DNA of 64,000 nt from Candidatus Latescibacterota bacterium (GCA_965206595.1 OZ242214.1:6304001-6368000), one strand, 5' to 3'. Shown: positions 46,610-56,876, numbered from the stretch's first letter. Notes: generated from the letters alone by a model not told the origin. A program made the numbers and translations.

Positions 46610-46701
46610 ATTCGACAATTCGACGCTGTCCAAACCGGCAATTGGACGCTACATTAACCGGCAATTGGACGCTGAAATAACCGACAAATGGACGCAGATC
46701 G
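46610..46701 (+). repeat. Four tandem 23-bp iteron/operator-like repeats overlapping the downstream start codon
   Basis: attcgacaattcgacgctgtcca / aaccggcaattggacgctacatt / aaccggcaattggacgctgaaat / aaccgacaaatggacgcagatcg. Confidence 0.8.
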
Positions 46702-47935
46702 ATCTCTGTTTCACCGCTCGCTGGCCCCCGTCCTCGGGGAGGCCCTGGCCGACACGCCGGTGGTCTGTCTCCTCGGGCCTCGGCAAAGCGGAAAAACCAC
46801 GCTCGTGCAGCAACTTGCTTCCGAGCGTGCGTTCGTCAGCCTGGACGAGCACAACTACTACCAGAACGCCGGTGCCGACCCGGACGGTTTCGTCGCCAGC
46901 CTGCCGGAAGAGGTGACCCTGGACGAGGTCCAACGGGTACCGGCACTGCTCACCGCCATCAAACGGGCAGTGGATCAGGACCGGCGTCCAGGCCGTTTTC
47001 TGCTGACCGGTTCGGCCAACCTTATGCTGGTGCCGACCGTTACCGAATCCCTTGCGGGACGAATGGAAATGGCGCAGTTGCACCCATTGACCGAATCGGA
47101 GAAGGAGCGCCTGCCCGGGCGTTTCCTCGGCGACCTGCTGAACGGGGCGCTCGAACCGGGAATCCGGCCCGGGGCGGAACCTTCCGGGCCATCGTTGCCG
47201 GAGCGACTGGTTGCCGGCGGCTATCCGGAGCCGCTGACCCGCGCACCCGGCCGCGCCCGGCAATGGCACCGGCAGTACCTGCGCAGCATCATCGAGCGGG
47301 ACGTGCAGGAAGTGGCGCGGGTGAGAGATGCCCGCGAGCTTGCCCGCCTGCTGGAGCTGTTGGCCCTGCGCAGCGCCGAACTGCTCAACACACTCAACCT
47401 GGCCAGCATCCTCGGACTGCACCGGGAAACGGTGGATCACTACATCGCCGTGCTCGAGCGGCTCTTCCTGGTGCGGCGACTGCCCGCGTGGAACCGCAAC
47501 CCGGCCAAACGGCTCGTCAAGGCGCCGAAGGTCCATCTGCTCGACAGCGGGCTGGCGGCGACCCTCGCCGGCCTGAGCGGGGTCGACTGGCTCCGCCGCC
47601 GGGACCGCATGGGACATCTGCTGGAGTCCTTCGTTGTGCAGCAGCTCATCGCCCAGGCAACCTGGACGGAACCGGACCTGCGGTTCTGGCATTATCGGGA
47701 CAAGGACGGCGTGGAGGTCGACGTGGTCCTTACGCGAGGCAGCAGGACCTGGGGTGTCGAGGTCAAGGCCGGCCGCACGCTCGGCCCCGAAGACGGGCAG
47801 GGCCTCATGCGGCTGGCTTCCCGCTGCGGGGAGGATTTCGAGTCGGGGGTGCTGCTCTACGCCGGCCGCGACCGGCTGCGGTTGGCCGGCGGGCGCCTGC
47901 TCGCCGTGCCGCTGAGCGAGTTGTGGGAGCGGTAG
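46688..47935 (+). CDS. AAA_14 ATPase with DUF4143 (HTH plus PD-(D/E)xK-like C-terminus)
   Basis: GPRQSGKTT, LDEVQR, FLLTGSA, GGYPE, K.PKVHLLDSGL and EVDVV...GVEVKAG motifs. Confidence 0.9.
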   Translation: MDADRSLFHRSLAPVLGEALADTPVVCLLGPRQSGKTTLVQQLASERAFVSLDEHNYYQNAGADPDGFVASLPEEVTLDEVQRVPALLTAIKRAVDQDRRPGRFLLTGSANLMLVPTVTESLAGRMEMAQLHPLTESEKERLPGRFLGDLLNGALEPGIRPGAEPSGPSLPERLVAGGYPEPLTRAPGRARQWHRQYLRSIIERDVQEVARVRDARELARLLELLALRSAELLNTLNLASILGLHRETVDHYIAVLERLFLVRRLPAWNRNPAKRLVKAPKVHLLDSGLAATLAGLSGVDWLRRRDRMGHLLESFVVQQLIAQATWTEPDLRFWHYRDKDGVEVDVVLTRGSRTWGVEVKAGRTLGPEDGQGLMRLASRCGEDFESGVLLYAGRDRLRLAGGRLLAVPLSELWER

Positions 47936-48230: not shown

Positions 48231-49097
48231 ATGAACGATGATGGACCGACCCCCCTGCGCCTGCTGACGATCACGGCGCACCCGCACGACGTGACCTACA
48301 CCCTGGGAACATCCGCCCACCACGTCGAGCGCGGGGACAGCGTCACCGTCGTTTCGCTGAGCGACGGGGTCACCACCCACGACGAGGAGCTCGAAGACGA
48401 GATGCGCAAGCCCGCGGAGGAACGCCGCGCCGAGATCCTCGAGCGCCCGCGCGGCGAGCAGGCGGAGCGCAAACAGGAAGAGCTGCAGCGGGTCTGCGCC
48501 CTGTTCGGGATCGAGGACGCCCGCGTCCTGCCGTTCGCCGATCACCCCCTCGATTCGTCGCCGCAGCTGATCGAGGCCCTGACCGACATCTTCTACGAGG
48601 TCCGCCCCCAGATCGTCATAACCCACGCCCCCTACAACTACCCCCACAGGAACATGTTCAGCCTGTGGGACGGCGATCACCCGCTGGCGGGCAAGCTCGT
48701 CCAGCAGGCGATGCAGCGCGTCGCCCAGCCGGACAGGCGCCGGGAGCGCTCGCTGCACCAGGTTGCCCAGGTCTACTACATCGGGGTGGAGTTCGGCTGG
48801 ACGGACATCGACCTGTTCGTCGACATCTCCGACCAGGTGGCGCGGCGGATCGAGGCCGAGGCGCTGTACGAGACCCAGGGCCACACCGCCGGGTTTTCAC
48901 GCAAGCGGATCGAGTCGTTCGCCGGATACCACGGCTGGTTCGGGCGCACGGGGTACGCCGAGCCGTTCATCAGGCAGAGCGGGCAGACCAGCGACTGCCT
49001 CACCGTCACCGCCAACGATCTCAGGCGGGCGCAGATGACCGGCAGGGAGAATCTCGATCAGATGGGGCAGTTCGCCAGCGCCGATTCGCAGGAATAG
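48231..49097 (+). CDS. PIG-L/LmbE family deacetylase-like protein
   Basis: ITAHPHD, RPQIVITH, DH and VDISD motifs. Confidence 0.82.
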   Translation: MNDDGPTPLRLLTITAHPHDVTYTLGTSAHHVERGDSVTVVSLSDGVTTHDEELEDEMRKPAEERRAEILERPRGEQAERKQEELQRVCALFGIEDARVLPFADHPLDSSPQLIEALTDIFYEVRPQIVITHAPYNYPHRNMFSLWDGDHPLAGKLVQQAMQRVAQPDRRRERSLHQVAQVYYIGVEFGWTDIDLFVDISDQVARRIEAEALYETQGHTAGFSRKRIESFAGYHGWFGRTGYAEPFIRQSGQTSDCLTVTANDLRRAQMTGRENLDQMGQFASADSQE

Positions 49098-49286: not shown

Positions 49287-50555
49287 ATGATCCGACGCAT
49301 TCAGGCACTCAATTTCCGGTGTTTACGGTACGTCGATGTCGAGCTTGGCCGCTTCCACATCCTGGTGGGCCCCAACGCTAGCGGCAAGAGCACCCTGTTT
49401 GATGTTATCGCTTTTCTCGGCGATTTGGTATCGAATGGGCTCGAAGCCGCGGTGGAAAGCCGCACAAGCAATTTCCAGGATCTGGTGTGGGGGCGGCCAA
49501 GGGACCGTCTCAGTTTCGAGCTGGCGGTAGAGTTCGACATCCCGGAGCATCTCCGTGAACAATTACCGCGGGACAGAGACTATCGGGTCTTTCGTTACGA
49601 AGTGGCAGTTCGAGAAACAGATGGCGACATCAGAATCGACTCTGAACGAGGTTTGCTCGCCCCTGCGCAAGAACGACAATCGTCGATCCAACGGGAGATG
49701 TTCCCCGATCCGATGCAGCCACCCCGGTCCATACTGGTAGGAGGCAATCGCCGTGGGCTACGGACTATATTGAGCAAGTCAAGTCAGGCGAAGGACAATT
49801 TTAACGTGGAAACGTCCTCCAAGTCCGGAAAGGGATGGGCGACAAGTATCGCCTTCGGACACCGTCGTTCGGCGCTTGGAAATCTCCCCGAGTCTCCGAC
49901 GAGTTTTCCCGTCGCGACGTATGTGAAGAAGATATTGGGGAGTTCGATAAAGTTGCTCTTTCTTGACAGTCTTCGCATGCGAGAGGCGAGTCCGCCGGCC
50001 AGGCACGAGGCTGGCATCGCACAGGACGGATCGAATCTTCCTTGGATTATCAAGAAACTCGAACGGGAGCACCCCGAATCTTACCGGGAATGGTTGTCAC
50101 ACATTCAAACGACGCTCTCGGAATTGGAATACGTCGGCGTCGTCGAGCGCGAAGACGACCGCCACGCGTACCTGAGGCTTCGCTACAAGTCGGGGGTCGA
50201 GGTTCCGTCGTGGATGGCATCCGACGGCACGCTCCGACTTCTGGCCTTGACGGTTCCTGCGTATTTACCCGGATCAGATGAGATATACATTCTAGAAGAA
50301 CCCGAGAACGGGATTCATCCACTGGCGGTCGATTGCGTCTTTCAGTCACTAAGTTCGGTCTACGAATCACAAGTTCTGCTTGCTACCCACTCACCCGTCG
50401 TGCTGAGGATGGCCGCTTTGGAAGAAGCGCTCTGCTTTGCGAAGAATTCCGCCGGCGCAACCGATGTCGTGCGGGGTGACGATCATCCACGTCTCAAGAA
50501 CTGGAGGGATTCGCCCAACATGGATGTCCTTTTCGCCTCCGGCGTGATTGGATGA
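49287..50555 (+). CDS. ABC/AAA_21-type ATPase, MADS MAD3-like
   Basis: NFRCLR, GPNASGKST, ASDGTLRLLAL, LEEPENGIHP and ATHSP motifs. The MAD3 likeness is from recall of the family. Confidence 0.82.
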   Translation: MIRRIQALNFRCLRYVDVELGRFHILVGPNASGKSTLFDVIAFLGDLVSNGLEAAVESRTSNFQDLVWGRPRDRLSFELAVEFDIPEHLREQLPRDRDYRVFRYEVAVRETDGDIRIDSERGLLAPAQERQSSIQREMFPDPMQPPRSILVGGNRRGLRTILSKSSQAKDNFNVETSSKSGKGWATSIAFGHRRSALGNLPESPTSFPVATYVKKILGSSIKLLFLDSLRMREASPPARHEAGIAQDGSNLPWIIKKLEREHPESYREWLSHIQTTLSELEYVGVVEREDDRHAYLRLRYKSGVEVPSWMASDGTLRLLALTVPAYLPGSDEIYILEEPENGIHPLAVDCVFQSLSSVYESQVLLATHSPVVLRMAALEEALCFAKNSAGATDVVRGDDHPRLKNWRDSPNMDVLFASGVIG

Positions 50556-51187
50556 TCAGCGCGGATCCCAAAGATCTCTTCGTGCTTGCGGCCGACTTGG
50601 AGTTGGCTAATGCTCTGGAGGGGTTACTGTCTCGCTCAAGGGATCTAGGTATCGAAGATATTGAATTCGACATTGAGCGCCACATAAACAGAGACAGTGG
50701 TTGCCGTAGTGAGGCGGTCGAGTATTTGAGACCATATCTTGGCAGGTATCGATATGCGTTGATAGTCTTTGATTATCATGGTTGCGGAAGTTCGCTTCCG
50801 AGAGAGGGTATTCAACGAAACCTCGAAAAGCAGCTGGCACGGAACGGATGGGAGAATGGTGCGAAAGTAATTGTAATCGATCCGGAGCTCGAAGTGTGGG
50901 TCTGGAGCCATTCTCCTACAGTTTCTCGAGTGTTGGGATGGGACGATCGCTACCCTGAGTTGCGACGATGGCTGGGTGACCAGCAATTGTGGCCGCCTGG
51001 CGACTCAAAGCCGACCCATCCAAAAAAGGCAATGAGAGAAGCAATGCGGCATGGAAGAGTGCAAAGATCCGCACGCAAGTTTTCTGAACTTGCGACCGCG
51101 GTAGAACTTGACGGTTGTCGGGACCCTGCTTTCAACGAGCTGAAGACAACCCTGCGCCGATGGTTTTCGCTCGAAACTCGTAAATGA
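50552..51187 (+). CDS. MAD4/DUF4276-like (RloB/TOPRIM-like) ATPase partner protein
   Basis: ATGA overlap with the ATPase, plus DL.VLAAD, H..RDSGC, VFDYHGCG, IDPELEVWVW, PK.A and C.DPAF..L motifs. Confidence 0.7.
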   Translation: MISADPKDLFVLAADLELANALEGLLSRSRDLGIEDIEFDIERHINRDSGCRSEAVEYLRPYLGRYRYALIVFDYHGCGSSLPREGIQRNLEKQLARNGWENGAKVIVIDPELEVWVWSHSPTVSRVLGWDDRYPELRRWLGDQQLWPPGDSKPTHPKKAMREAMRHGRVQRSARKFSELATAVELDGCRDPAFNELKTTLRRWFSLETRK

Positions 51188-51336: not shown

Positions 51337-53223
51337 TCACTGTCCGATAACCGAAGCGCTGTCAAGGAAGTTTCTCGCAAGATTCTCTGCGTCGAAGTTC
51401 TTCAGTGGAAAAATGATCTTTTCACCGTCTTCCATCCGAAACAGGCCATAAATGTTATACCTCCAAATACAACCGATGCTTCCCCCACCGTTACCGCAAA
51501 ATTCGACAAGATAGGATTTGAGGCATTTCCCCGGCAGATTGGGGGCGAGCTCTTGACATAGATTTGTGGATACATCCGACAAGATTGTGTACTCATCGTA
51601 GGCGCCTTGGTATTCCTCAGAAACATCCCTGACAGTCAAATCCTCGATCCTTAATTGATCGGAGTCTCCGGCACAATCAATTACGTTTCCCCAGAGACTG
51701 ATTTTTTGGCCATAGAAATCAATTGGGTCAAATGGAGAAATTGGATCGCCGAAATACTTGCCCGTGTTGTGTGCGAAATCTTCGAATTCCGGAGAACCGT
51801 ATGTATCGGCTATTGAGAACCGCTTAGCAAATTCCTCGAAATTATCACTTGACAACCCTTCAACCACAAAACACTGAGGAGGTAAGAGCCTGCCGTCAAC
51901 TTCCCAACCCGCAGAGATGGGAGGGAGTTCTTCTTGCACCCAATCATTTACTGAAACAATCCTGAAAGTATCGCTGCCCTTATACCAAATCAGACCATTC
52001 GCGAGCATGAATCCGCGCAATCCGACAGGAGTACAAGGAGGCTCATCCTTTAAAACTTTAGCTCCCCAGGAATCGGGAAAAATCTCCCGAAAGTCTTTAT
52101 TCTCGGCATGTTTCCGCCTGGGTCCGTGCTCCAGTTCGCCATCCACCAAAGAGAAAAACGCAAGGAGATCCTTTTTTCGCACCGCATCTTGAATCGCCAA
52201 TCCAAATCCATATGCCTTTTCAGGATCATACCCCCAATAGTCCGCAGATTCTGCGAGGGTCATGTCAATACCTGGCAATGGACCTGTTCCGTGGTTATCT
52301 GCGCAAACGGATGATTGCCCGGGATTCGGCCGTAGATAAACATCAGGGTCTTCGACCGGGCCCATTATTTTGACGTTTACGGGCTCTTTGCCTCGATCCT
52401 TCCATGATATCCCGCGCACCTGGTGCGTGCCGAAGAGCTGTTCGAGCACCCCGTCATGGGCCTGCTTCCAGCGTTCCTTCGCCCCCGGAGGCGTCTCGTC
52501 CCACACCCGCACGTAGAAAATGCACGAGTAGGTCCGGACTTGGGATGCCTTTCCCATCTCGTACAGGGGCAGCATGACGTTGCGCATCTCTGTGTCCGTC
52601 AGCGGCGTCCCGTAGGGGATGGTGTCAAGCGCAAGGCTATCTGCTTTTTCAGCGTAAGGTGCTCCACTGTCGTCCTCGGGGCTTCCCTCGGGGATCGGAA
52701 GCCTCTGTACTTCCATGTGATCCTCGCGGATGGCGATGTCAAACAGATAGTATGGCTTTTCCCGCCAGGTGGCCTTCGTGATCGGGTTGGTCTCTTCGAT
52801 CCGTTGGTACCAGCACGGAGGTGTGATTCCCTTGCCGAAGATCCGGATCTCTTTTTCGAGGGAGCCAATTTTTTCGTTCAACGTTTCGATTTTGCGCTCG
52901 GCGTCCGCAAGTGCTTTCTCGCGTTCCGTGTCCTCCAATACTCGTATTCGTTCCTGCAGTCTGGCCTTCTCTTTTTCTAAGGCTTCGACCTCCTTTTTGA
53001 GTCTTTCAATATCGCGCCCGCGTTCGTCCGAATGTTTCAACGCCACCTCGACCTCCTCGGGAGTGGCCTTCGCCATGATCTCCTTCCAGGAGTCGAATTT
53101 CTTGCCCCAGTAGCGGTTTACCCCCATGAGGGCAAGCAGCATCAGAAAGACGAGCAGGATGAATATCTCAGCGATCGTCAGCCCCAGTACCGCACCCCGC
53201 CTGTATCCCTCCTCCGTTTCCAT
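51337..53223 (-). CDS. MotB/ZorB-like single-pass membrane protein with coiled coil and large Cys-containing extracytoplasmic region
   Basis: N-terminal GLTIAEIFILLVFLMLLALM, a heptad stretch and a PPCW...C.FYVRVWD domain. No OmpA motif was seen. Confidence 0.65.
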   Translation of the reverse strand: METEEGYRRGAVLGLTIAEIFILLVFLMLLALMGVNRYWGKKFDSWKEIMAKATPEEVEVALKHSDERGRDIERLKKEVEALEKEKARLQERIRVLEDTEREKALADAERKIETLNEKIGSLEKEIRIFGKGITPPCWYQRIEETNPITKATWREKPYYLFDIAIREDHMEVQRLPIPEGSPEDDSGAPYAEKADSLALDTIPYGTPLTDTEMRNVMLPLYEMGKASQVRTYSCIFYVRVWDETPPGAKERWKQAHDGVLEQLFGTHQVRGISWKDRGKEPVNVKIMGPVEDPDVYLRPNPGQSSVCADNHGTGPLPGIDMTLAESADYWGYDPEKAYGFGLAIQDAVRKKDLLAFFSLVDGELEHGPRRKHAENKDFREIFPDSWGAKVLKDEPPCTPVGLRGFMLANGLIWYKGSDTFRIVSVNDWVQEELPPISAGWEVDGRLLPPQCFVVEGLSSDNFEEFAKRFSIADTYGSPEFEDFAHNTGKYFGDPISPFDPIDFYGQKISLWGNVIDCAGDSDQLRIEDLTVRDVSEEYQGAYDEYTILSDVSTNLCQELAPNLPGKCLKSYLVEFCGNGGGSIGCIWRYNIYGLFRMEDGEKIIFPLKNFDAENLARNFLDSASVIGQ

Positions 53224-53240
53224 GGACGTGTCCCGACTGC

Positions 53241-54842
53241 CTACCGCTGCAAGACGCGGTCGATCCAGCTTTTGGTGCTTTCGTCGCCTTTGGCCTCGTC
53301 AAAGGCGACGATGGCCTGCTTCAGCACTTCGGCGAGCCTAGTCCCTTCGTCTTGAAGCGCAGTCTGCACCCCCTTTAGTCCCTTATTGATCCGTTGAATC
53401 TCCCGTTCGGTGTCCTTCAGATTCTCTGTGTATCTGCCTGCTGTGGTCACAACTTCCGCGATTTCGGCGATGGCCTCCGTGAGTTTTGCCTGACCTTCAA
53501 ACTCCCTGCCCCCAGCTTCGGCAAGTTCCTGGAGCTTCTTGACGGTAACGTCGAGTGCCTCCTCATGTTGCTTGCCTGCGCCGGCGATTCCGGCGAGCTG
53601 ATCCGTCACCGCCTTGGCGTTGGCCTCTAAATTCGAGATCGCGTTGCTCGCGCTGGCGACATCGGCCAAGTGCTCAATCGCCATGCTGGCCTTGCGGACC
53701 CCGTCTGGCAGAATGGTGAGTTCCGTATTAGTGCGCTGCGCCTCCTGGCCAAGTTTCGCGAGTTCCTGGTTGGTCCGTTCCATTTCCTCCAGAGCCGCCC
53801 CTGCCCGACGCTGAATTTCCATCCACTCCTCCGCCTGCCGGTTGAGCATCTCGCCTATCTCGCTGGCGAACTGTTCTCGGGCGGCCTGGTTGGTCCTCTC
53901 AGTGGCGGTCGCCTCAGCCAGAGAGTTCAGGCCTTCGGTGACTGTCTTGCTGCTTTCCGCAAACGCCTCGGAACTCGCCTTGGCCTGGATGCCGATGGCC
54001 GCAAGATTTTCGGCCGTCTCTCCACTCCCCGCCCGGATGCGCTCGATGCTTTCGTCCATGTTCTTCACTTGCGCTTCGAGTCTCTCCAGCGCGCCCTGGA
54101 TTCCCGCCCCCTGTTCCTCCGTCCGCTGCCTCGCCTCCTCGGCCTTTTCGGCGACGGACTCGTAGATCGCTTTCAGGCTTTCGAGCTCCGCCTTCGCCTT
54201 CTCTTCCAGCCCGTCATGGAACGCCTGCATCATCTCCTCCATGTGGGCGTGGGTGGTCTTTGCCTGCAGGATGGTCTGGTTGGCGTGGGAATTGAACGCA
54301 TTGGTTGAGCTCTGGAGTTGCCTGCGCAGCTCATACGCATAGCGCTCCAGATCGATGGTGGCGCCTTCGATCTCTACGCCAGCGGCGCCGGAACCGCTGG
54401 CTGAATGGGGGATCCGGATGATTGTCTCCTGTCCCTCCGTCCCCTGGCGTTGCAGGGTCATGCGCATGACGATCCCTGCCATGGTTGTGAGAAGGGCGAT
54501 CCCGAAGCTGCCGATCATCTCGTCGGTGCGTTCCTCGAGCGACTGCTCACCCCCGAACAGGAGAAACAGGCTAACGAGCGCTGTGCAAAGTGAAGTGAGG
54601 GTATACAGCAACCCGAGGTAATAGACCTCGTCTCCCAGGCGCGGATGCTCGTCCTCGGCCCGGACCCGTTTTTGGTCGTGTCTGTACAGCCCCATGATGC
54701 CGATCCCGAGCGCGGAGGCAACGATCCCTCCGAGGATCGGCTGGCTTTGCGCGATCAGTTTCGCCATGAAGATCAAGACAGATCCGATCCCGAATGCCCA
54801 CTCGAAAGCATGCTCTGTTTTCAACACGCGCGCCTTCTCCAT
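53241..54842 (-). CDS. MotA/TolQ/ExbB-like (ZorA-like) membrane protein with ~400-aa helical tail
   Basis: Four hydrophobic segments including YYLGLLYTLTSL and FGIALLTTMAGI, then a long A/E/Q-rich coiled coil. The ATG overlaps the upstream TGA (TGATG). Confidence 0.72.
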   Translation of the reverse strand: MEKARVLKTEHAFEWAFGIGSVLIFMAKLIAQSQPILGGIVASALGIGIMGLYRHDQKRVRAEDEHPRLGDEVYYLGLLYTLTSLCTALVSLFLLFGGEQSLEERTDEMIGSFGIALLTTMAGIVMRMTLQRQGTEGQETIIRIPHSASGSGAAGVEIEGATIDLERYAYELRRQLQSSTNAFNSHANQTILQAKTTHAHMEEMMQAFHDGLEEKAKAELESLKAIYESVAEKAEEARQRTEEQGAGIQGALERLEAQVKNMDESIERIRAGSGETAENLAAIGIQAKASSEAFAESSKTVTEGLNSLAEATATERTNQAAREQFASEIGEMLNRQAEEWMEIQRRAGAALEEMERTNQELAKLGQEAQRTNTELTILPDGVRKASMAIEHLADVASASNAISNLEANAKAVTDQLAGIAGAGKQHEEALDVTVKKLQELAEAGGREFEGQAKLTEAIAEIAEVVTTAGRYTENLKDTEREIQRINKGLKGVQTALQDEGTRLAEVLKQAIVAFDEAKGDESTKSWIDRVLQR

Positions 54843-55549
54843 CACAGCGCCTGCTGCCATAGCACCTTTCCTCCCATCTCCTCTACCCAGTCCGTCCACC
54901 AGTAGTAGTGCTCCGACGTCTGATAACTCTCATACTTGTGCCTTTCTAGTCGAAACAAGCTCACCTCCACTCGTGAAAGATCGGTCCTGAGTTCGCGAGG
55001 AATCTCTTCCGGGTTTGGGTACGGCATGTAATGTGACAGCATCCCCGTGTTTTGCAGCAAATCCGAGATGATAATCAGGTGCGTGGGTTTCACCGCCTTT
55101 TCCGCTCGCCTGCTGCTCGCGTGGCGGGCCGAAATAACCGCAATGGTTTCCAAGATCGGGGATGACGGTTGCGCCTCGCGTTCTTCCGCGGGGAACATTG
55201 CTTCGATCACTTTGACGAACTTTTCCCAGCGCCACTCGGTGATCACTGTGCCTGTCGTCAACTCTTCAAATCGCCGCCTTTCCTCGGGATTGCCCCCAGG
55301 GTGGCAGATTTGCGCGATCGGTGTTTCGGGGGCTCCGGTGCTTTCCAGACGGTAGAGTGTCACCCGTTCCCCCTTCCTCACCGCAAGGGCGTCATGACGC
55401 CCGCTTGCCGACGGACTCGTCATCTCCCGCACAATGCGCCTGAGTTCCTCCTTGTGCTTGTCGCCCAGCGGATCCGACGTATCGAGCAGTACGACCACCT
55501 CCCGGGATCGCCTCTTCGGCTTGGTGAAAGCCCTCCCAGTCCTCGTCAT
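54842..55549 (-). CDS. vWA-like alpha/beta protein, N-terminus probably lost
   Basis: VVVLLDTSD, SPILETI and LIIISDLLQN (MIDAS-like). It overlaps the upstream ORF by ~160 nt. Confidence 0.6.
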   Translation of the reverse strand: MTRTGRAFTKPKRRSREVVVLLDTSDPLGDKHKEELRRIVREMTSPSASGRHDALAVRKGERVTLYRLESTGAPETPIAQICHPGGNPEERRRFEELTTGTVITEWRWEKFVKVIEAMFPAEEREAQPSSPILETIAVISARHASSRRAEKAVKPTHLIIISDLLQNTGMLSHYMPYPNPEEIPRELRTDLSRVEVSLFRLERHKYESYQTSEHYYWWTDWVEEMGGKVLWQQAL

Positions 55550-56876
55550 AGTCCGAGGGTGGAATCTCCTCCCACTCCGGCGCTTCCAGCATCTCCTGAT
55601 CGATAAGGAGTCTCTCGGCGAAAAACTCCGGGTTCGGTGTTGTACGGGCCATCTCGTTTGCCGAGCGATATGCCGCGATTATGAAGTCCAGGTGGTTCTG
55701 GTACTGGCGAAGCTGCATGGGGAATTGCCGTACGATCCCTCTTGCGGAGTCAGTGATCAGCCGGTGGTTCCCCTTCTTGTTTTCCACTTGCTGCCGTTGG
55801 TCCCGGATTCTTTCAGTGTACTCCTCGTAGATCCTTTTCAGATTCGCTCGCCTTTGCACGTTCTCATCCTGGTACTCCTCAAAATGCTCCGCTTCAGTCC
55901 GATGCACCTTTCCGTAACCTGGATACACGTCGTCGCGGTTCAGCCACTTGGTTGCGGCGAAGATGCAGCAGCCTGCTCCGATTAGGGCAAGCAGCCATGA
56001 GAGCATTCCTTCGAGTCCGAAAAGATTATTCGAGAACCTCTCTGGGGTGTCGTCTGCCAGCAATTCTCCCAAGGAACTTGCTCCCGACGCAGCTTTGGTC
56101 GCCACGGCGAGCATGCTGTCACGGAAATGCCCGACGAGCAGGTTCCAGAGAAACATGCCCGTTGTCCCCAGCGCCACCAGAGTCCAGCCTAGCGATTTTG
56201 GCAGTAACTCCACCGAGTTCTTCTGGCGCCATCCTTCTCCGATTAGCCCTCCCAGGATGCCCGCATTCACCACGCCGACCGCCAGCATGATGACTATTGC
56301 GCCAAGAAGGCCGTATTCGTGCACGCCGGCGAGCATCATGGCGTTTACAAGCGCTTCGATAACCACAATTCCGCCCAGCCACCAGTACCAAGTCTCCCTT
56401 TCGTTATACTCCGGCACACGTTCGAGGTTGGCCTTTGTCTTGAACGCGGCCAATGCCGCCCGTGCGTCCCGGGCTTCGCGCTGCTTTTTTACGAGAATGG
56501 ATCGATCTTTCTCGGCCTGATCGGTCAGTTCGACGATACCCTGGTTTTTCAGGCCTTCCACAGTGTGCTGAATTGGAGCCATACCTTCCCTGGTTTCCAG
56601 TTCCAGGGCGTGCTGTTGCTGCACGAGGTACCTGCTCACGGCCGCATGGCACGCTTTCCCACGCTGGTTAACCCAGGCGAGAATCTTGTTGTACATATCG
56701 TCCGGCTGGATCGCTTCCGACGGCGGAAATTCCTGTTCGCCCTTCTCGCGTCCTGCCTCCCGGATCTTGTTTTCTCTGATCCACCGCTCGCAATCGAGTT
56801 CGGCGTACTCCTGCTTCGCTCCATCCCAACCCGGTAATGTGGTCCATTCTCCAGTATTCACACTTGTAATCCTCAT
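55392..56876 (-). CDS. Multi-pass membrane protein with flanking coiled coils
   Basis: About 4 central TM helices, DDVYPGYG and YRSAN..AR..P.P.FF. The last ~35 aa look like out-of-frame read-through. Confidence 0.75.
   Translation of the reverse strand: MRITSVNTGEWTTLPGWDGAKQEYAELDCERWIRENKIREAGREKGEQEFPPSEAIQPDDMYNKILAWVNQRGKACHAAVSRYLVQQQHALELETREGMAPIQHTVEGLKNQGIVELTDQAEKDRSILVKKQREARDARAALAAFKTKANLERVPEYNERETWYWWLGGIVVIEALVNAMMLAGVHEYGLLGAIVIMLAVGVVNAGILGGLIGEGWRQKNSVELLPKSLGWTLVALGTTGMFLWNLLVGHFRDSMLAVATKAASGASSLGELLADDTPERFSNNLFGLEGMLSWLLALIGAGCCIFAATKWLNRDDVYPGYGKVHRTEAEHFEEYQDENVQRRANLKRIYEEYTERIRDQRQQVENKKGNHRLITDSARGIVRQFPMQLRQYQNHLDFIIAAYRSANEMARTTPNPEFFAERLLIDQEMLEAPEWEEIPPSDYDEDWEGFHQAEEAIPGGGRTARYVGSAGRQAQGGTQAHCAGDDESVGKRAS

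Follow-up and report, generated by a model that had tools for sequence, protein, structure and literature searches.

Which kind of system is encoded by the four co-oriented genes at positions 51337-56876 of the DNA analysed here? The stretch, called the window below, comprises 64,000 nucleotides from a Candidatus Latescibacterota bacterium (GCA_965206595.1, OZ242214.1:6304001-6368000), and the genes are numbered g1 to g4 in the order of transcription. A preliminary description of this DNA proposed an undescribed Zorya-like ion-motor system, composed of a membrane and coiled-coil protein (g1), a protein of the von Willebrand factor A (vWA) type (g2), a MotA-like subunit with a long tail (g3) and a MotB-like subunit (g4). 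Ion-driven 5:2 motors power flagella, Ton, Tol, gliding and Zorya. On balance, we lean slightly towards reading the locus as a damaged copy of a widespread four-gene envelope module with a stator-type core, which would act in defence against phage or plasmid entry. The preliminary description had overlooked the deletion at the g1/g2 junction, an add-on domain on g4 and the recurrent exported nuclease partners of the family. The coordinates of all features are collected in Table 1.

The four open reading frames (ORFs) are closely packed on one strand, and their spacing was verified as first described: the stop codon TGA of g2 overlaps an in-frame ATG of g3 to give TGATG, and 17 nt (53224-53240) separate the g3 stop from the g4 start. 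Homologues back a g3 start at 54860, 18 nt upstream of the TGATG start, which yields a protein of 539 aa. A profile of the g3 membrane domain retrieved 2,226 representatives of 50%-identity clusters at E<=1e-3, and 1,343 at E<=1e-10, among 1.84 billion proteins. None of the 116 close g3 clusters is named; the labels found are 'hypothetical protein' and 'methyl-accepting chemotaxis protein' (MCP), the latter probably a coiled-coil artefact. Eight distinct genome loci keep the order g1-g2-g3-g4, with identities down to 21-30%, and at a ninth (L023) g2 and g3 alone were detected. A scan of genome contigs with a single protein found 2 loci only. Within Latescibacterota, 10 of 168 genomes match, and neither of the two other genomes of the window's genus does.

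Synteny, which the preliminary description had put forward as a check, also holds in metagenomes. The best 80 of at least 381 relatives were scanned with local hidden Markov models (HMMs), and all 29 loci with room on both sides carry the four genes in the same order and on the same strand. Where only one side could be judged, g1 and g2 are present in 36/36 loci with upstream room and g4 in 49/50 with downstream room. The exception, L071 (3-536), has no g4 match and a short g3 ORF that ends after the membrane domain, and may be another degraded copy. A metagenome g1 query also matched 24 plasmid records from Rhizobium, Sinorhizobium, Paracoccus, Microvirga and Tistrella, and the four-gene order is kept in 4/4 of the records inspected; a tblastn search of plasmids with the g3 membrane domain of the window gave no match. 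RefSeq annotates these four plasmid loci as three hypothetical proteins together with either an 'OmpA family protein' or one more hypothetical protein. Two relatives were found in 2.9 million viral contigs, a count that is uninformative either way. Collectively, the set is a large, unnamed and rigidly syntenic four-gene family. On the S. fredii plasmid pSfreNXT3b, a pair annotated as a hypothetical protein and an OmpA family protein lies about 9 kb upstream of the set and adjoins an IS30 transposase (L149:1-1232); this pair could be a partial second g3-g4 copy.

A family of this size, whose synteny makes detection easy, may already have been catalogued under some name, for example in newer PADLOC or DefenseFinder models or in the supplementary tables where recent large screens keep their candidate lists. 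We give this reading, which overlaps the others, a slim chance. The set is absent from PADLOC-DB 2.0.0, including its candidate PDC and HEC models, and neither Pfam nor NCBIfam matches it. Database names are absent or wrong, those in RefSeq being 'hypothetical protein' or 'OmpA family protein'. No published description of the gene set was found in the full-text literature, a search that did not cover supplementary candidate lists, and the accessible part of one domain-centric screen is silent on SNase, OmpA, MotA and vWA.

In the window, g1 and g2 share 158 nt, which are read in two different frames. In tblastn comparisons with related loci, g1 homology stops at residue 457 and g2 homology begins at residue 15, two positions that adjoin each other in the window. 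The conserved part of g1 thus comprises residues 1-457 (55506-56876), its final 37 codons being out-of-frame read-through into g2, and the conserved part of g2 spans 54845-55507. In relatives, g2 encodes about 270 aa with a positively charged N-terminus and an N-terminal transmembrane (TM) helix, both of which the window copy lacks. Alignment with four related loci shows that about 220-250 bases are absent from the window, precisely between ...GAGGCGAT and CCCGGGAGG... The intact form was recovered in contigs of runs X4 and X5, from two studies, which match the window exactly except for 247 additional letters between 55505 and 55507. The deleted form is bridged at the junction by contigs of X1, which may be the sample that yielded the window, and of X10, from a further study. 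The lost segment holds the C-terminus and stop codon of g1 together with the start codon and membrane anchor of g2. A natural deletion is therefore segregating among near-identical strains; it accounts for the 158-nt overlap, and g2 function is probably lost in the window copy. The deleted and intact strains form a pair for a natural loss-of-function comparison. Programmed frameshifting at the g1-g2 overlap was considered and rejected, since both the relatives and the near-identical strains hold separate genes with about 246 more bases.

On all lines of evidence together, g3 and g4 are probably a stator pair. The motifs LGLLYTL and ALLTTMAG, to which the preliminary description had pointed, can be read directly in g3, and the threonines T87 (TM3) and T126 (TM4) are invariant among 135 sequences. 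A profile of the g3 membrane domain (100 sequences) was compared by hhalign with 29 ExbB/TolQ proteins drawn from the window's genome and related genomes. The comparison gave P 0.0012 and a score of 27.3, against scores of <=13.8 in one reversed and 20 column-shuffled controls, and the register is as expected, with YLGLLYTL aligned to iGlLGTV and FGIALLTT to seALiTT. The N-terminus of g4 compared in the same way with nine ExbD/TolR N-termini gave P 0.001. Among 15 pairs in a full matrix, P of about 0.001 was reached only by g3 with ExbB/TolQ and g4 with ExbD/TolR, while the 12 mismatched pairs gave 0.04-0.88, which supports the proposed combination of a MotA-like and a MotB-like subunit. In addition, the family PF01618 matches 6/110 g3-family members at E<=0.01 (best 8e-4).

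In g4, the one TM helix carries the T-I-A-E sequence noted earlier, within GLTIAEIF, and its glutamate (E19) is invariant together with C137 and C234. The Glu is found in 65/65 aligned homologues and in 37/37 metagenome g4 sequences caught by a motif pattern, and it is visible in other rows as well. MotB carries Asp at the equivalent membrane position.

Structure prediction with AlphaFold2 (110 sequences) placed g3 residues 11-140 at a predicted local distance difference test (pLDDT) score of 86-98, with four TM helices followed by five long helices at residues 171-246, 253-323, 336-398, 401-449 and 456-524. An earlier model of the membrane domain alone, built from 11 sequences, had a pLDDT of 55.7 and was too poor for structure searching. 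When the model was compared by VIA-align with 48,161 representative PDB chains, the type II ZorAB structure 8vvi was the top row covering the membrane domain; its ZorA chain aligned with Z 10.5-10.8 and a root-mean-square deviation of 2.3-2.4 (98/99 residues aligned). Designed helical bundles over the same region scored alike, so the ZorA match fits a ZorA-like fold and is not decisive.

Could the likeness be one of hydrophobic helix composition alone? In that case g3 and g4 would form no ion motor, and the module would be a membrane and coiled-coil scaffold or a stress system whose parts merely co-occur. We give this alternative a small chance. Several results weigh on its side and against the stator assignment. 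No named family was found in Pfam, NCBIfam or PADLOC for any of the four proteins beyond coiled-coil noise; g3 has no Pfam match to PF01618 at E<=0.1, and a scan of the whole genome with this family at E<=10 listed 8 places without g3 among them. In the PDB, profile searches with the g3 membrane domain (two profiles) returned nothing at E<=10, and one with full-length g3 returned coiled-coil noise only. Foldseek found no match to g3 at E<=0.001, TolQ and ExbB chains appearing at E 0.2-0.7. The designed bundles reached Z 9.4-11.9, the ZorA match being no higher, and a Z of about 10.5 lies in the generic helical-bundle range and below the tool's safe level for helical folds. The hhalign probabilities of g3 against ExbB/TolQ are 19-25%. 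As for g4, the acidic membrane residue is a Glu where Asp would be usual, and in the alignment it falls one position behind the Asp of ExbD, within a stretch of low confidence. A complex prediction of g3(12-150) and g4(1-60) scored 0.12 against a mark of 0.32; it was run with four and two copies, respectively, and has no weight either way. Against the compositional explanation stand the matrix itself, in which only the two matched pairs stand out, in the expected register and over two signature helices, the invariant charged residue in the single TM helix of g4, the invariance of the two g3 threonines, the MotB-style OmpA ends within the g4 family, and the constant adjacency of g3 and g4.

The long helical tail ascribed to g3 in the preliminary description is borne out by the prediction of residues 171-538 as helical. 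Its matches are of tail type only, to ZorA, SMC and MCP models. Lengths in the g3 family range from about 300 to 630 aa. In two distant homologues (L022:7954-9594 and L021:9062-10315) the tail carries several near-identical tandem repeats of about 90 aa, and tail length seems to evolve by gain and loss of repeats. In the monomer model, residues about 250-520 (53241-54100) form a long helical bundle, and the best natural structural matches of the tail are alpha-pore-forming toxin components of the ClyA family (AhlB, Z 12.4; Hbl, Smh, Mak and Nhe, Z 9.7-12.2). The Apolipoprotein Pfam model matches 31/110 family members, for which amphipathic helices alone may be the explanation. A role of the tail as a ClyA-type pore-forming toxin was set aside, as Z values of 10-12.4 are commonplace for long helical bundles.

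The protein encoded by g1 has four TM helices, in agreement with the first account of it, and helical regions lie on both sides of this block. Among 44 sequences, the polar residues E174, N178 and N204 in TM1/TM2 are invariant, and a D-x-Y-P-G-Y-G motif follows TM4 (D316-x-Y-P invariant), as does a conserved C-terminal helical region. No family in Pfam, NCBIfam or PADLOC includes g1, and its 30/30 nearest Atlas clusters have no Pfam family. The invariant residues of g2 (61 sequences) are D23, D26, C82, S130-P131 and S162-D163. Its motif reads D-x-S/T-D-P, compared with the DxSxS...T...D pattern of the vWA metal ion-dependent adhesion site (MIDAS). The earlier assignment of g2 as a MIDAS-like vWA protein keeps some ground: the nearest Atlas clusters carry VWFA names (scores 0.91-0.92), and an hhalign comparison with six VWA_2 proteins matches VVVLLDTSD to the DxSxS strand and IIISD to the TDG strand. 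The P value of this comparison varies with the settings (0.0055 or 0.07), g2 has no Pfam match, and its PDB profile search gave chance-level rows only, for which reasons the vWA-like character of g2 is weakly supported.

The C-terminal part of g4 proved to be modular. The preliminary description called g4 'OmpA-less', and the window protein indeed has no match to PF00691 (OmpA), nor does its core match any other Pfam family; the trait is confined to its own branch. In other branches, an OmpA-like domain exceeds the PF00691 cut-off of 27.2 bits (L076, 32.4 bits; plasmid pRL11 of Rhizobium johnstonii 3841, 28.7 bits), and a further five homologues have OmpA scores below it. Complete metagenome g4 ORFs were sorted by motif into 18 two-Cys, 17 OmpA-like and 12 other ends, classes that are based on regular expressions and were checked in part by Pfam; 13 further g4 genes are cut off by contig ends. 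A PDB profile search with the two-Cys domain returned chance-level rows only.

Relatives of g4 measure 260-335 aa and end at the position of window residue 290, and most have no extension. The extension of the window copy matches nothing in Pfam or PADLOC, and its DNA has a G+C content (GC) of 0.51, the lowest of the stretch. It belongs to an unnamed family of 53 homologues, most of them stand-alone proteins of 310-370 aa, and one other cluster (P0348) shows the same fusion to g4. It looks like a mobile domain, judging from its occurrence. Elsewhere, precomputed Pfam labels show members of the extension family fused to ankyrin repeats, DnaJ, an FGE-sulfatase domain or Sel1 repeats (P0385, P0393, P0433, P0435).

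Nuclease domains recur at the same end of g4 or next to it. In L117 and L102 the end of g4 carries a fused SNase domain, and L017 as well as six database clusters show a fusion of g4 to a GmrSD_C nuclease domain. Among the 21 metagenome loci with 700 bp or more on each side, local HMMs placed an SNase, either fused or within 1.5 kb, in 8, and the adjacent ORFs tested by Pfam were SNase in 5/5 cases. A thermonuclease gene adjoins the set in 3/4 of the inspected plasmid loci. These recurrent exported partners suggest an action in the periplasm. The OmpA and SNase domains on g4 homologues, together with the conserved Cys pairs in g2 and g4, argue for a topology in which the C-termini of g2 and g4 would be periplasmic; the charge bias around the g4 TM helix is weak. 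In a close relative, a stand-alone nuclease ORF of GmrSD_C type (L016:6084-6608, plus strand; Pfam E 8.8e-8) follows g4 at a distance of about 1.1 kb.

Whether the module serves in defence was judged from its neighbourhood and distribution. In the window, MAD3 and MAD4, a pair equivalent to PADLOC HEC-01, lie convergent with g4. The S. fredii copy adjoins PD-Lambda-1 (5.8e-170), a CHAT protein and an antitoxin, and the Microvirga copy sits between recombinase genes. Elsewhere, 20 flanking ORFs of 11 loci, picked by size and proximity from 31 loci, were scanned; four ORFs at two loci gave strong PADLOC matches (ZacC and KwaB at L081, a type I methyltransferase and PDC-S48 at L107). The GC is 0.51-0.63 at about 48-57 kb of the window versus 0.66-0.71 in its surroundings, and at the genome loci compared the GC at third codon positions (GC3) of the operon is below that of flanking genes. 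A search for tRNA genes as a possible integration-site marker at 40000-64000 of the window found none.

Taken by itself, a defence role falls somewhat short of an even chance, and a number of observations count against it. Among the other scanned flanking ORFs, one had a weak PADLOC match and 15 of the 20 had none; Pfam matched 7 of 10 PADLOC-negative ORFs, and the families are mostly housekeeping or mixed, including type IX secretion system cargo, tetratricopeptide repeat (TPR) proteins, MscL, an enzyme resembling nonribosomal peptide synthetases, nitrite reductase and a caspase-like protease. Efflux and sugar genes surround the P. yeei copy, and clear defence neighbours were seen at only 4/16 inspected loci, the window included. 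The operon has no cytoplasmic effector, and the periplasm is an unusual site for a nuclease attack on phage DNA.

A non-immune, housekeeping or nutritional machine is the alternative, in which a stator-driven force transducer of Tol/Ton type would let the vWA protein reach outer layers, and the exported SNase would break down extracellular DNA to allow its uptake, to remodel biofilms or to control transformation. The extracytoplasmic SNase and OmpA-like domains and the non-defence neighbours at many loci agree with it, and so does the absence of a cytoplasmic effector. Against it speak the patchy distribution, even inside one genus, the atypical GC3, the exchange of nuclease or uncharacterised modules at the C-terminus of g4, and the defence genes that directly flank 4/16 loci. 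Loss-of-function deletions are typical of costly accessory systems, and the segregation of such a deletion among near-identical strains also speaks against a housekeeping machine. In the accessible part of PMC12204202, TM-anchored periplasmic vWA proteins beside tolQ-like motors are proposed as force transducers, which supports the non-immune alternative; the TM helix of g2 has neither the SHLS/His motif nor the Asp of the vWA families described there, which does not. Overall, we regard this machine as unlikely.

For the preferred reading, a defensive envelope module, the parts may be arranged as follows. The putative channel subunit g3 would be a remote relative of MotA/ExbB/TolQ/ZorA with a long cytoplasmic helical tail, and g4 a single-pass MotB/ExbD-like subunit with a membrane Glu in place of the usual Asp. 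The end of g4 that is placed in the periplasm is modular, either an OmpA-like peptidoglycan binder or a two-Cys domain, to which some family members add a nuclease or another tip domain. The g2 protein would be a membrane-anchored periplasmic vWA-like protein, and g1 a 4-TM protein with intramembrane polar residues and extensive helical parts in the cytoplasm. Ions that flow past the Glu, in a complex with a pentamer around a dimer, would power or gate the periplasmic parts, namely the vWA adhesin and a fused or adjacent exported nuclease. The 5:2 assembly, the ion coupling and the topology are here inferred. The target would be DNA or machinery crossing the envelope, so that the module could protect against phage or plasmid entry, and the cytoplasmic side would be left to the g3 tail and g1. 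In its most specific form, a wall-anchored Glu-type MotAB-like motor would mechanically deploy the vWA adhesin and the nuclease to seize or cut phage or plasmid DNA, or its conduit, in the periplasm, with the g3 tail and g1 as the coupling to the cytoplasm; this full scheme is possible and rather doubtful.

Two further genes lie at the border of the lower-GC stretch of the window, an AAA_14/DUF4143 ATPase (46688-47935, plus strand) and a PIG-L family deacetylase (48231-49097, plus strand).

Table 1. Features of the four-gene locus and its neighbours, in positions of the window
Feature	Position	Strand	Description
g1	55392-56876	minus	ORF, 494 aa from the ATG of the preliminary description
g2	54842-55549	minus	ORF; vWA-like, N-terminally truncated in the window
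Deletion junction	55505-55507		about 246 bp lost; DNA alignment and public contigs
g3	53241-54860	minus	ORF, 539 aa; identical to database gene call P0001
g3 membrane domain	54411-54860	minus	four predicted TM helices; TM3 GDEVYYLGLLYTLTSL and TM4 FGIALLTTMAGIV align with ExbB/TolQ signature helices
g3 cytoplasmic helical tail	53241-54410	minus	about 390 aa; length and repeat content vary across the family
g4	51337-53223	minus	ORF; core and C-terminal extension
g4 core, residues 1-290	52354-53223	minus	N-terminal TM with invariant Glu19, coiled coil, two-Cys domain of about 130 aa
g4 extension, residues 291-628	51337-52353	minus	338 aa, Cys-rich, low-GC DNA
MAD3	49287-50555	plus	NCBIfam NF047739, E 3.9e-142; PADLOC HEC-01A, mad3
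MAD4	50552-51187	plus	NCBIfam NF047734, E 3.5e-63; PADLOC mad4

If the motor reading is true, the family adds a further large branch of 5:2 motors with a different parts list, which spans thousands of sequence clusters in Latescibacterota, Alphaproteobacteria and many metagenomes. Its distinctive parts would be the Glu of the axle helix, a B subunit whose periplasmic tip can be exchanged (OmpA-like, two-Cys, SNase, GmrSD_C or uncharacterised), an anchored vWA-like protein and a conserved 4-TM partner. The branch would provide a natural test of Glu replacing the canonical Asp in 5:2 motors. If it is defensive, it would be a powered machine that intercepts foreign DNA in the periplasm, and a motor joined to a periplasmic nuclease would represent a new and widespread defence principle.

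Among known systems, ExbB-ExbD, TolQ-TolR and MotA-MotB share with the module the gene order of A before B; profiles of ExbB/TolQ and ExbD/TolR align with the two g3 signature helices and the g4 TM helix, respectively, and the MotB arrangement of TM helix, linker and OmpA-like domain recurs in part of the g4 family. In contrast to ExbB, TolQ and MotA, g3 stays under all Pfam thresholds and has a compact 4-TM domain with a short TM2-TM3 loop and a tail of about 390 aa. The Glu of g4 is invariant where ExbD has Asp in the alignment, and a TonB/TolA-like partner, as in Ton and Tol, was not found. A classification of MotAB relatives (PMC12505986) has no mention of a Glu form in its accessible part.

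For g2, the closest published parallel is a set of vWA proteins that are anchored by a TM helix, are encoded next to tolQ-like motors and were put forward as force transducers (PMC12204202; Mol Biol Evol 2025). As with those, the module has an inner-membrane-anchored periplasmic vWA-like protein beside the gene of a 5:2-type motor. The accessible text of that paper describes families with an SHLS/His TM motif accompanied by tolQ, two tolR-like genes and a TPR gene, or with an Asp transpore helix and no tolR. In the module, by contrast, His, Asp and Glu are absent from the g2 TM helix in nine relatives, the motor includes no recognisable TolQ, and g1 and the nuclease are extra parts. SNIPE/PD-Lambda-1, a DUF4041 membrane-bound nuclease, offers a precedent for a nuclease at the membrane that acts on entering phage DNA (PMC13190303, accessible part). 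This single protein is unrelated, lacks both a motor pair and a vWA part, and is a neighbour of the family and not a member.

Zorya, for which the accessible part of PMC11890865 gives three subtypes and a model with ZorB binding peptidoglycan and a recruited nuclease, differs in several respects. The preliminary description expected no identity with Zorya I-III, and only the tail of g3 does match ZorA models: the best match (PDLC00601, E 2.8e-6) covers only residues 212-529. The PADLOC models recognise a genuine ZorA in the window's own genome at G000:C1:4587387 (1e-36 over residues 16-408), so g3 lies outside catalogued ZorA and, by its sequence, is not a ZorA in that sense. The B subunit g4 has Glu instead of Asp, the partners zorC/D/E/F/G were not found (PADLOC on g1 and g2; the neighbours are MAD3/MAD4), two extra membrane proteins (g1 and g2) are present, and the nucleases lie on the periplasmic side, by fusion or by export, whereas Zorya recruits effectors in the cytoplasm. 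The genuine type I ZorA of the window's genome (L029, G000:C1:4587387-4587644; PADLOC PDLC00605, E 1e-36) lies in a 617-aa frame, and for this reason the organism probably also has a canonical Zorya. The likenesses between the two systems lie in the A subunit with its long helical cytoplasmic tail, in the single-pass B subunit encoded next to it, in ZorA as the best PDB chain over the g3 membrane domain, and in some OmpA-ended g4 homologues that weakly match ZorB models (pRL11 g4, E 8.2e-6). The effector of the module is probably a nuclease, in line with the published Zorya model as far as the accessible part of PMC11890865 describes it.

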